Below, in pieces: positions 57,722 through 60,382 of a stretch of 64,000 nt of DNA. How positions within the stretch are numbered: the first letter of the stretch is position 1; every line of letters begins with the position of its first letter. The stretch is from a bacterium. GTDB taxonomy: Bacteria; Elusimicrobiota; JBDRMW01; JBDROU01. The position numbers and the translations under genes were made by a program. Under the pieces are notes generated by a model. That model worked only from the letters and a program-made list of their open reading frames with translations, was not told the origin of the DNA and did no database searches. The stretch lies in NCBI GenBank assembly GCA_043809745.1, contig JBDROU010000079.1:1163-65162 (forward strand). Reading direction: 5' to 3'.

Positions 57722-60382
57722 ATGAAGCAGATATTTTGTTTATTATGTTTATATGGGGTATTATTGCTCAATGTTTCTGGTATTAATGCCCTTGCGCCTT
57801 ACAGCTCTGAGCTTACAGTTCCGTTCGGTATACCTTCAAAATCACAGCTTGAGCAATTTATTGTTTTGGAACGGGATGACTCATCGGATACTTTCACTTA
57901 TTATGATATTAAAGACTATCCCGGATGGGTGGTTATTGCGCCGGAGGTGTCTGAAAGCTCTGCTGCTTCGTGCGAAGATATTCAAAAGTTTTCATTTTAC
58001 GAAGATTATTTTGCATATTCCGAAATCTATCGTAATGTCAGGCTGAGAGCGAACGAGGGTGTGAAAGTTTATGAGACTGTTATTGTAAGAGCAAAGCTTG
58101 TAAGTTTATTTGATTTAATTGAGACATTAATTGTTAAGGAAGACTACACGGCAGTTAGAGATATGCTCGAACAGCTTGTTGATCTTATAAGTTATGTTCA
58201 CTCGTACGGATGGGTTGACAGAATTTTTCAGGAAGATCGGATGCCTGACATTCGGGAGTTATTAGAAAATATCGGAATTCGCGCAAGCGGGAAATTTGTT
58301 TACGAGAGGTATGAGCATCTTCGCAGGAGTTCTGATCGCAGTGTTTCCGACCTTGCCTGGCTAAACTTAAATTTCGCATTTATGGATTTTGTTGATAAAA
58401 ACTCTAAAGATGTTGCTTTTCAGCAACGAATTACGCGCATATTCCGCCACCGTATACTGACTCAAATCCGGTTCTTGATTGATGATAAGCTGGACTTCAA
58501 GCTTGGAGATTATTTTGAATATATAGATGAAGCTGCTATTCGTGATGAACTAATATTTAATGCCCATAAAATGGTGAACCCGGAGATAATCACAAAAGTT
58601 TCTTTGCTGGCGCTAAATAAGCAGAGTCCATATCAGCTGCACACCCTGTCTTCGAACCGGTTGCTGCTGGATGTTATCCGCTATCTTGAATGGTTTGCAG
58701 AGGAAGCTTCAGGAATGCCGGAGCTTACTATGCGTTCTCTAAGCGCTCTTTTGCAGGAAGAATACCAATACTATGTAAAAAATGATTATCTGTATCATAA
58801 GAGTGAATTTGCAAGAGGTATGGCCGAGTTAATGAAGCGTATTAGCAAAGCAGAAGTTCATATACACCTGTCAGGTTCAATCACACCTGAGCTGGCTTTT
58901 AAGTTGTATTGGAAATATCCTGTTGCGAGGAGAGAGTTTTTAAGAAACAATAACCTTAATTCAGAAAATGATCTGAAAAGAATGAGCCAGATTGATATTG
59001 ATGTGGCATTTGCGAAGGTTTTTGGACTTGAGTTGGTGTCCAAAGATTACAAATTTTTTGGAGGAATCCGCAATATTTTAGAGAATGACCGTATTGAGGT
59101 GGATGATGCGGTTTATGAAACCGCCCTGTGCAGGCTTTTCAGAGCTGATAATCAGGCGTATGAACGCGCGCTTATATCGCTTAAAACTGATTACATTGAA
59201 TACCGGCCGCGCGAAGAGGATTCGAGCGCAAAGCGCATGGCTCAATATCTCTCGCAACTTTCAGTTGGCGAAATTCTTTTGCGCCAGTCTACGTATGCGA
59301 ATTATATAAGCGCAAAGATGAATGCGTTGGGGGCTTTTGAAAATGATAACGTTAGGAAATTTGAGCTAAGAACAGGCGCAGGCAATCGGCCGGGTTCTTC
59401 AATAGGTGTTGAAGATACCGTCCGCAGTGTAATTCTTGGATTGAATGAAGCAAGGGAGTTTACAGATCAAAAATTGAAAACCGGTGTTATTTTATGCATT
59501 AGAAAAGAACCGCATGCTCTTTTAGGTGAACTGAGGATTAATGAAATTAAATTGTATTCTCAAACTTTGAGTATGGGACAGATAGAACAGATGATCGGGG
59601 ATAATGAGATTAAAGTATTAAAGGAGATGACCCGTGATTTGGAATGGTATGATGATGCAGATAAACGTAAGGAGATGTTTTTGATTCTTTTTAAAACAAG
59701 AAATGAAGTATTAAAACAGATGCGGTCAATTATTGATTTGAAAAAATCGTTGCAAAAGGATGGTCTGGAGAACTATATGCTTGGCATAGATACCGTAGGA
59801 AATGAAGCAGGATTTGTAAGCTGGACTCACATCCCTGCTATGCGATTAGCTAAAGAATCCGGGCTTAGCATTACTGTACATTCAGGAGAAGTGTGGGGGG
59901 AGGATGAAACAATACTGGATGCGTTAGTGCGTTTGGAGCGGGAGATAGATACAGGATTGGTAGACCGAATCGGTCATGCGACTGCGCTTGGGATATCTCC
60001 TTTTAATTTGAACTTGCCGAAAAAGCATGTCCAGGAGGTTTTGCTTGTTCAATACAGAATCATGAAAAAAATTATTGAAAAAGGGATATATATAGAGTCG
60101 ATGCCTTCCTCTAATGTGATTCTGAACGCCGCAATAAGGAAGTATATCTCTCATGTAATTAATAATTTTATTTGTTTTGGGCTCAAAGTGCAAATTGCGC
60201 AGGACAACAGATGGATTCTGCATACATTGAATCTTTCAGGCGAGCTTACTAAAATATTCCTGGAAACGAAACCGCGTATTACATTTGGTCAGCTGTTAGA
60301 TCTTGTGCGAGCAAGTCATGAAGGGAGTTTTATTCAAAATACTAACTTTAAGAGACTCAGACTTGTCTTAAATTCAAAATAG
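57722..60382 (+). CDS. secreted adenosine/AMP-deaminase-fold metallohydrolase with ~400-aa N-terminal extension
   Basis: Signal peptide MKQIFCLLCLYGVLLLNVSGINALA. ADA-family motifs in the C-terminal ~500 aa: AEVHIHLSGSITPE (HxHxxGS), SITVHSGEVWGEDE (HAGE), VDRIGHATALG (RIGHG). The SLNTDDP position reads ESMPSSNV, so the Asp pair is not evident. Confidence 0.65.
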   Translation: MKQIFCLLCLYGVLLLNVSGINALAPYSSELTVPFGIPSKSQLEQFIVLERDDSSDTFTYYDIKDYPGWVVIAPEVSESSAASCEDIQKFSFYEDYFAYSEIYRNVRLRANEGVKVYETVIVRAKLVSLFDLIETLIVKEDYTAVRDMLEQLVDLISYVHSYGWVDRIFQEDRMPDIRELLENIGIRASGKFVYERYEHLRRSSDRSVSDLAWLNLNFAFMDFVDKNSKDVAFQQRITRIFRHRILTQIRFLIDDKLDFKLGDYFEYIDEAAIRDELIFNAHKMVNPEIITKVSLLALNKQSPYQLHTLSSNRLLLDVIRYLEWFAEEASGMPELTMRSLSALLQEEYQYYVKNDYLYHKSEFARGMAELMKRISKAEVHIHLSGSITPELAFKLYWKYPVARREFLRNNNLNSENDLKRMSQIDIDVAFAKVFGLELVSKDYKFFGGIRNILENDRIEVDDAVYETALCRLFRADNQAYERALISLKTDYIEYRPREEDSSAKRMAQYLSQLSVGEILLRQSTYANYISAKMNALGAFENDNVRKFELRTGAGNRPGSSIGVEDTVRSVILGLNEAREFTDQKLKTGVILCIRKEPHALLGELRINEIKLYSQTLSMGQIEQMIGDNEIKVLKEMTRDLEWYDDADKRKEMFLILFKTRNEVLKQMRSIIDLKKSLQKDGLENYMLGIDTVGNEAGFVSWTHIPAMRLAKESGLSITVHSGEVWGEDETILDALVRLEREIDTGLVDRIGHATALGISPFNLNLPKKHVQEVLLVQYRIMKKIIEKGIYIESMPSSNVILNAAIRKYISHVINNFICFGLKVQIAQDNRWILHTLNLSGELTKIFLETKPRITFGQLLDLVRASHEGSFIQNTNFKRLRLVLNSK

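Follow-up and report, generated by a model that had tools for sequence, protein, structure and literature searches.

In canonical adenosine deaminase (ADA), Asp296 contacts N7 of the purine. A second aspartate, Asp19, forms hydrogen bonds to the ribose 5′- and 3′-OH (PMC12669630). The CRISPR-associated enzyme TaqCad1 differs from canonical ADAs at exactly two positions, with Asn549 for Asp296 and Gly264 for Asp19; both residues contact ATP in its structure, and the enzyme deaminates ATP to inosine triphosphate (ITP) while showing at most weak adenosine activity (PMC12669630). In N6-methyl-AMP (N6-mAMP) deaminase (MAPDA), Asn17 at the Asp19 position binds the 5′-phosphate together with Thr98 and Lys100 (PMC6451127). 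Here, we characterize a gene for an ADA-fold protein in a 64,000-nucleotide stretch of an Elusimicrobiota contig (JBDROU010000079.1 of GenBank assembly GCA_043809745.1, positions 1,163 to 65,162 of the forward strand; hereafter the window). Its open reading frame (ORF; 57722–60382, plus strand) starts with ATG, encodes 886 aa and ends in the consecutive stop codons TAG TAA TAG. It is a real gene, and its product is recorded by NCBI as ‘MAG: hypothetical protein ABII27_07525 [bacterium]’. The explanation that we favor, tentatively and at a little under an even chance, is that the protein is a catalytically competent purine 6-aminohydrolase that depends on Zn, is exported from the cytoplasm and would more likely act on a 5′-phosphorylated adenine nucleotide than on adenosine.

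We set the register of the active-site motifs by aligning 56 ADA-family modules from an exhaustive homology search, and tested it again by searching a nine-sequence family profile against the Protein Data Bank (PDB). The first-pass annotation of this DNA, made from the sequence alone, had quoted four motifs, all of which we found in the ORF that it had located (HIHLSGS at residues 380–386, HSGE at 720–723, RIGH at 749–752 and ESMPSSNV at 792–799). It had, however, placed ESMPSSNV at the position of the canonical SLNTDDP motif, which is an error of register. In the 56-module alignment, IESMPSSNV falls on the β7 consensus ‘lE-x-CP-[ST]-SN-v’, present in every member, and the profile search aligns the family sequence ‘ieslPssNvlL’ to LEVCPISNVLL of Plasmodium ADA. 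The equivalent of SLNTDDP is KVQIAQDNRWI, located about 30 residues past ESMPSSNV and aligned to the β8 ‘v-x-l-N-T-D-[DN]’ columns; the family profile’s β8 sequence, ‘vvvaqDnkwiLhT’, is aligned to VSVNSDDPGMFLT. Because the two alignments give the same register, D828 takes the position of the Zn-ligand and catalytic Asp (mouse Asp295), a column that holds Asp in 56 of 56 sequences. The non-canonical fourth metal motif was an alignment artefact.

All six metal and catalytic residues (H380, H382, H720, E723, H752 and D828) stand in the correct columns, and the nine-sequence family alignment shows no variation at H720, E723, H752 or D828. The protein carries the four Zn ligands and the catalytic Glu and His that define the superfamily, and its zinc site is complete at the level of residues. 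We judge it likely that the protein is an active ADA-fold deaminase. S384 and N829 stand where canonical ADA has the substrate-contacting aspartates Asp19 and Asp296, and only in this weaker form does the suggestion of altered catalysis hold up. Profile alignment accordingly restores one half of the supposedly missing Asp pair, the Zn ligand D828, and leaves Asn at the other. The protein is still not an ordinary ADA, because its score of 60.9 bits lies well below the 216.55 required by the Add equivalog TIGR01430 and because its architecture and clade are unusual.

The mechanism that we propose follows from the conserved residues. An N-terminal Sec-type signal peptide would direct export across the cytoplasmic membrane, after which H380, H382, H720 and D828 would hold a Zn-bound water. 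E723 would protonate N1 of the purine, while H752 and D828 would activate the hydroxide for attack on C6 and release of ammonia. The preferred substrate would more likely be AMP, ADP, ATP or a derivative than free adenosine.

The ADA fold claimed in the first pass is borne out by a match to Pfam A_deaminase (PF00962) at 45.2 bits (gathering cut-off 27, E = 8.7e-12), which is far beyond chance; no other Pfam family matches the protein, even at E ≤ 10. We built an AlphaFold2 model on the family alignment (mean predicted local distance difference test score (pLDDT) of 76.7, predicted template modelling score (pTM) of 0.77). Its (β/α)8 barrel superposes on solved superfamily members, with weaker structure matches to ADA2 (28.7), a CRISPR-associated deaminase (28.7), RdrB (25.1) and AMP deaminase (19.2), and the Foldseek result on the model agrees. 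The predicted fold is a full ADA barrel, a match that has no power to separate substrate classes. The module is enlarged to 531 aa, about 190 residues more than the 325–345 aa or so of ordinary ADAs. Its helical segment between β1 and β2 appears to be about twice the length usual in the canonical fold, and a second helical insertion separates β3 from β4. Some 355–375 residues precede the barrel, which agrees with the long N-terminal extension described in the first pass. Residues 1–118 have no confident structure in the model, and the all-helical domain that follows yielded no structural relative. This domain was not found in the giant-protein relatives described below, in the window’s 16,873-aa ORF or in the 660-aa protein encoded next to the gene. 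Together with the two barrel insertions, it probably has a role in assembly, regulation or targeting.

The family is rare. An exhaustive HMMER search of 1.84 billion representative proteins returned 104 proteins at E ≤ 1e-3, and the whole architecture occurs in only two of them, P0002 (864 aa, E = 4e-125) and P0003 (827 aa, E = 1e-86); P0004 is a fragment. The next matches (P0005–P0015, E = 1e-53 to 1e-18) are modules within very large proteins, such as P0005 (4,423 aa), P0006 (5,860 aa), P0007 (5,182 aa), P0008 (1,978 aa), P0009 (2,091 aa) and P0010 (6,760 aa), and P0024 (5,218 aa) and P0051 (7,836 aa) contain ADA modules at weaker scores. These giant-protein relatives span 1,700–7,800 aa, many with signal-like N-termini, and ordinary ADAs of 320–400 aa appear at E = 1e-12 and weaker. 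One further close relative, L004 (37% identity), came from a metagenome scan; its ORF is truncated at its 5′ end by the contig end. Neither the protein nor the nine-sequence profile retrieved anything but the query itself in word-indexed searches of 5.8 billion clusters; a single-protein scan of species-representative genomes and a search of viral contigs found no relative. P0006 comes from Elusimicrobiota and P0014 from Candidatus Omnitrophota, and further relatives come from unclassified metagenome-assembled genomes (MAGs). The MAG of P0012 has a locus-tag prefix (ABII23) similar to that of the query (ABII27), suggesting the same submission batch.

A crude neighbor-joining tree over 233 conserved barrel columns, computed without bootstrap, places the free-standing trio inside a clade that otherwise consists of giant-protein modules, apart from the ordinary ADAs and from a (G,D) group of 415–568-aa modules. 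Several giants combine the ADA module with other enzymes: P0005 with an ARMT1-like phosphatase and methyltransferases, P0008 with HATPase_c, and P0006 is named an RNB ribonuclease by NCBI. The catalytic His of β6 is absent from P0012, P0014, P0017, P0027 and P0049 (RLGMA, RAANL, QITNA, YLTNP) while the Zn ligands are kept. Some members of the wider clade, though not the protein described here, may thus be catalytically altered.

Two short sequences recur among these proteins. A C-terminal ‘-AA’, often ‘-QAA’, ends 14 of about 109 retrieved ADA-like proteins, with a rough chance expectation below 1; they include P0002, P0003, P0004, L004, P0009, P0010, P0017 and P0051, while the protein described here ends in NSK and the other ORFs on the L004 contig lack the ending. 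The ending might act as a degron-like or sorting tail. A pentapeptide, GAR[LM]A, is present 15 times in P0010, 14 times in P0051 and 5 times in P0011 (1,674 aa), apparently at domain junctions, and is absent from the window’s giant ORF and from the 886-aa protein. Such a distribution would fit a linker or processing site of a polyprotein-like giant.

We consider export across the cytoplasmic membrane probable, and the putative signal-peptide assignment, which is in line with the first-pass proposal, rests on hydropathy, charge and conservation in relatives. The protein is strongly hydrophobic only at about residues 3–21 (19-residue Kyte-Doolittle mean up to 2.0); a weaker peak lies near residue 120. 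The tripeptide LAP directly follows the N-terminal segment. No such segment is present in the public gene calls of P0002 and P0003, yet each ORF can be extended in frame to an upstream ATG. Extension to the first in-frame ATG gives MKRFSFYLIGLFAFVSGPIPLCLGTLPSNGWGQN-LAP-RPMG for P0002 and MQHCFLLNPLVRLLLIGYLCFQCVPFTEA-LAP-MSAK for P0003, so that LAP stands in the contexts QN-LAP-RP (P0002ext) and EA-LAP-MS (P0003ext). The signal-like segment and the LAP after it are therefore kept in all three full-length proteins, which supports the start codon of the gene. Inspection of the N-terminus showed no lipobox Cys in register and no twin Arg, and we rejected a lipoprotein and Tat export on these grounds.

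The public calls for these two relatives (L001 5814–8393 for P0003, L002 about 872–3583 for P0002) appear to be N-terminally truncated. A similar tripeptide, ‘L[AS]P’ or ‘IAP’, recurs within about 10–25 residues after the signal-like segment in P0005, P0009, P0012, P0013 and the neighboring 660-aa protein (KLAPSK, TLSPSS, FLAPPA, CLSPF and QIAPLG). It might serve in processing or sorting as a motif peculiar to the lineage.

Ser or Thr at the Asp19 position combined with Asn or His at the Asp296 position marks the subclade of the protein (P0001-3, L004, P0006, P0009 and P0012-14). All four closest sequences share an R556-P-G-S stretch in the loop after β2, and the Arg of this stretch recurs in modules with the Ser/Thr and Asn/His combination and not in modules that keep both aspartates. 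By analogy with MAPDA, we regard this as a candidate phosphate-binding loop. Because S384 and N829 replace the aspartates and an additional Arg is conserved in the clade, a nucleotide would be more likely than free adenosine. The adenylate kinase and LOG families both act on nucleoside phosphates. In P0014, the ADA module (3338–3652) is followed directly by an adenylate kinase (3672–3823), and in P0011, P0015, P0022 and P0026 it lies ahead of LOG-type domains (PF03641). These fusions are indirectly consistent with a nucleotide substrate for the module. The first-pass idea of a nucleotide substrate has gained some support, and we put a nucleotide rather than a nucleoside substrate at somewhat less than an even chance.

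Several points weigh against an exported nucleotide deaminase. ATP is scarce outside cells, and an exported ATP deaminase would need a delivery route or an extracellular substrate pool. Proline at +1 of ‘INA|LAP’ disfavors signal-peptide cleavage exactly at that position. N829 alone says little, because many ordinary-length ADA homologues have Asn where mouse ADA has Asp296: 16 of the 34 homologues of at most 400 aa in our set combine Asp19 with Asn296, and one of these aligns ‘NTDN’ to ‘NTDD’ of Vibrio ADA. Restoring both aspartates in Cad1 did not regain adenosine activity (PMC12669630), and the Asp19 and Asp296 positions are therefore indicative but not sufficient. At the Asp19 position, Cad1 has Gly and MAPDA has Asn, and S384 matches neither. 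R556 would lie near the active site by analogy, and Thr98 and Lys100 of MAPDA are assigned to the loop after β2 from residue numbering; a 69-residue query for an ADAL/MAPDA β2-loop alignment matched nothing relevant, and with P0034 as query ADAL was not among the top matches. Finally, the fusion-bearing relatives are distant from the protein (28–38% identity).

The strongest competing explanation is a deaminase of adenosine, deoxyadenosine or adenine, located in the periplasm or outside the cell, that would convert external adenosine to inosine for purine scavenging by a producer with limited purine synthesis, in effect ordinary ADA chemistry in an unusual package. The complete catalytic set and the signal-like peptide suit this explanation as well, the closest PDB sequence matches are nucleoside ADAs (Plasmodium ADA, E = 1e-17; Salmonella ADA, E = 1.7e-16), and Asn is frequent at the Asp296 position in ordinary-length homologues. 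The ribose-binding Asp19, however, is Ser in the protein and replaced in the rest of its subclade, and the score falls far short of the Add equivalog cut-off. Salvage would leave the private region of 355 residues and the roughly 190 extra barrel residues unexplained, relatives are fused to nucleotide-handling domains, and no transporter or salvage genes adjoin the gene. We rate scavenging as rather unlikely, though ahead of the other competitors. Loss of deaminase activity, leaving a pseudo-enzyme or binding protein, is a far weaker contender. Asp296→Asn severely impairs binding and catalysis in mouse ADA (Sideraki 1996, as cited in PMC12669630), and the β6 His is missing in the related modules P0012, P0014, P0027 and P0049. 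Yet the six metal and catalytic residues are kept in the protein and its closest relatives, the supposedly missing Zn ligand was an alignment error, and Cad1 works as a deaminase although it carries Asn in place of Asp296. We regard this explanation as very unlikely, given the intact catalytic set.

Two further explanations would turn the chemistry against nucleotide pools. According to one, the protein is a toxin directed at prey or host, an exported ATP or dATP deaminase that would deplete the adenine nucleotides of another cell and would represent a free-standing version of an effector cassette within giant secreted proteins of related bacteria. The Cad1-like substitutions and the signal-like peptide are consistent with it, as is the recurrence of the module in proteins of 1,700–7,800 aa in Omnitrophota and Elusimicrobiota. 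The gene also lies near a 16,873-aa ORF, and such giant genes have been linked to Omnitrophota predation in the available portion of a preprint (bioRxiv 10.1101/2023.11.21.568195). However, no delivery system, immunity gene or conserved partner adjoins the gene or its relatives, the giant relatives mix many housekeeping-like enzyme domains, and the accessible parts of the giant-gene literature that we found do not mention adenosine deaminase, leaving a toxin improbable. According to the other, the protein is a cytoplasmic anti-phage effector of the Cad1 or RADAR (RdrB) type, depleting nucleotides from a defense island beside AbiE. The PADLOC profile CARF5--CARF_ADA matches at E = 1.7e-11, RdrB and Cad1 structures are among the matches, and the AbiEii/AbiEi pair and two macro-domain proteins are encoded 3–7 kb upstream. 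But only positions 367–587 of the 605 in the CARF_ADA profile are matched, corresponding to the deaminase part, and thus the protein has no CARF domain. The RdrB equivalog NF041744 reaches 11.1 bits where 800 is the cut-off, the window’s ORFs include neither an RdrA-like ATPase nor cas genes, and the conserved signal-like peptide would place the enzyme outside the cytoplasm. The module lies in the giant-protein clade of the crude tree and not in the (G,D) group, and its relatives do not occur in defense contexts. These comparisons largely refute an anti-phage role, which has only a slight chance of being correct.

The gene is monocistronic, with a divergent neighbor upstream (226-nt gap) and a convergent flavodoxin-like NAD(P)H oxidoreductase 89 nt downstream (Table 1). 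No riboswitch or other Rfam element was found upstream, and promoter and terminator consensus matches at the gene do not exceed the shuffled expectation. The divergent neighbor encodes a 660-aa orphan with an HExxH-like motif (HELQH, residues ~338–342) and no Pfam, NCBIfam or PADLOC match. We rejected it as a conserved partner, as the genes beside P0002, P0003 and L004 are unrelated to it, and these neighborhoods have nothing in common with that of the gene. Two macro-domain paralogues sit between the giant ORF and the AbiE pair; macro is an ADP-ribose-binding or hydrolase domain. Within the first 10,000 residues of the giant ORF, the sole Pfam matches are Fascin/FRG1-like (residues ~4454–4548), and a search for an ADA module in this ORF found none. 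The window also encodes a lactate/malate dehydrogenase, UvdE and a YbgC-type thioesterase. The match obtained for the dehydrogenase, from Anaerolineales, is only 46% identical and carries no taxonomic information. An Rfam ‘plastid psbI-rps4’ match below the gathering score overlaps the tRNA-Ser gene on the opposite strand and is probably spurious.

Table 1. Positions in the window of the deaminase-fold gene, its parts and surrounding features.
Feature	Position	Strand	Remarks
Whole ORF	57722..60382	+	886 aa plus stop; extra in-frame stops at 60383-60388
Signal-peptide-like N-terminus, MKQIFCLLCLYGVLLLNVSGINA	57722..57790	+	Lys2, ~14-residue hydrophobic core, small residues in VSG / INA
LAP tripeptide	57791..57799	+	Right after hydrophobic segment; same place in P0002ext and P0003ext
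Ser/Glu/Tyr-rich region, residues 24-118	57791..58075	+	No confident structure (pLDDT mostly <45)
N-terminal all-helical domain, about residues 119-355	58076..58786	+	Common to P0002 and P0003 only
Expanded (β/α)8 ADA barrel, about residues 360-873	58799..60340	+	Predicted
β1 motif EVHIHLSGS	58853..58879	+	Zn ligands H380, H382; S384 at mouse ADA Asp19 position
Helical segment β1-β2, residues 389-542	58886..59347	+	Model secondary structure
β2 loop, ELRTGAGNRPGS	59363..59398	+	Candidate phosphate-binding loop
Helical insertion β3-β4, residues 597-680	59510..59761	+	Length highly variable among giant-protein modules
β5 motif TVHSGEVW	59873..59896	+	Zn ligand H720, catalytic Glu E723
β6 motif DRIGHA	59963..59980	+	Catalytic His H752
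β7 motif IESMPSSNV	60092..60118	+	Ordinary ‘ExCPxSN’ motif by alignment
β8 motif KVQIAQDNRWI, residues 822-832	60185..60217	+	D828 at mouse Asp295, N829 at Asp296 position
660-aa orphan, divergent from the gene	55513-57495	-	226 nt upstream; signal-peptide-like N-terminus (MFLKKIISLIILLIFFIQNELHAYKQIAP...)
AbiEii/AbiEi toxin-antitoxin (abortive infection) pair	53392-54811	-	Overlapping genes; PADLOC E 1.9e-94 and 3e-60
Two tandem paralogous ~310-aa proteins	50944-51888 and 52019-52954	-	Macro domain plus weak DUF1844-like N-terminal match
Giant ORF, 16,873 codons	234-50855	+	GTG start; 79% of window; strong positive GC and AT skew
tRNA-Ser(TGA)	63294-63383	-	Divergent from tRNA-His, end of window
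tRNA-His(GTG)	63515-63589	+	Divergent from tRNA-Ser, end of window

In architecture, the protein is a rare form within a familiar enzyme family; its active site bears Cad1-like substitutions, and its closest relatives lie inside giant proteins of uncultivated bacteria. To our knowledge, TIM-barrel ATP deaminases have so far been used against nucleotide pools only in intracellular anti-phage defense (Cad1, RADAR). The most far-reaching reading, which we hold to be a long shot, is that the protein represents, in free-standing and exported form, an undescribed clade of enlarged ADA-fold modules that would convert ATP, dATP or AMP to inosine forms and be deployed outside the cell against the nucleotide pool of prey or host, in ultrasmall or predatory bacteria (Omnitrophota, Elusimicrobiota) whose modules usually lie within giant secreted multi-enzyme proteins. 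If true, an ADA-fold enzyme would here be exported to act on nucleotides and not nucleosides, extending the ATP-to-ITP poisoning chemistry of CRISPR and RADAR defense to a secreted context. A single gene of 886 aa would then offer an entry to the biochemistry of Omnitrophota and Elusimicrobiota giants that are too large to express. If the protein is instead a periplasmic adenosine deaminase, it adds only modestly to a known family, as a form with a rare architecture. Either way, the alarm over an incomplete zinc site is settled.

Compared to the known systems, the protein departs from canonical Add/ADA1 (COG1816, PF00962, TIGR01430; ~330–360 aa) by its 886 aa, adding a signal-like peptide, a private 240-residue helical domain and the extra barrel residues, and by Ser and Asn at the Asp19 and Asp296 positions. 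The ribose-binding Asp19 of orthologous Add (NCBIfam TIGR01430 and PRK09358) is thus absent from its HIHLSGS motif, and other equivalogs score 19–56 bits against cut-offs of 412–530. ADAL/MAPDA keeps the Asp-Asp pair in β8 (Asp295/Asp296), is ~350 aa long and cytosolic, unlike the protein described here, and no ADAL-type ‘HxHLNGS’ sequences occur among the 104 homologues.

ADGF/CECR1/ADA2 and the ADGF-type Helix pomatia AMP deaminase are also among the closest known systems. A secretion signal is a mark of this group, and the N-terminus of our protein is a candidate for one by hydropathy and conservation. The N-terminal domain specific to ADGFs is Pfam A_deaminase_N. Only PF00962 matched in the Pfam scan and the helical domain has no structural relative, so the ADGF/CECR1 resemblance suggested in the first pass does not hold and we rejected this assignment. 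AMPD-type AMP deaminase was rejected because it gave no better profile or structure match than ADA, and RdrB because of its low equivalog score and the lack of an RdrA partner; the signal-like peptide is a further difference from RdrB.

Cad1/CAAD (type III CRISPR, ATP to ITP) is alike in that Asp19 and Asp296 are both replaced (S384 and N829 versus G264 and N549). It differs by Gly in place of Ser at the Asp19 position, by its CARF domain and CRISPR context, and by its cytoplasmic location as opposed to predicted export, and our protein falls outside the (G,D) group of the tree. The giant-protein modules (P0005–P0015, P0022, P0024 and P0051) share the expanded barrel and the clade with our protein, together with the motifs YIEYRP, GxRPGS, GIDTVGxE and LHT..LSGE. 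In the giants, many other domains accompany the module (ARMT1-like phosphatase, methyltransferases, HATPase, adenylate kinase, LOG and RNB), whereas here it is free-standing and carries its own N-terminal domain, which the giants lack.

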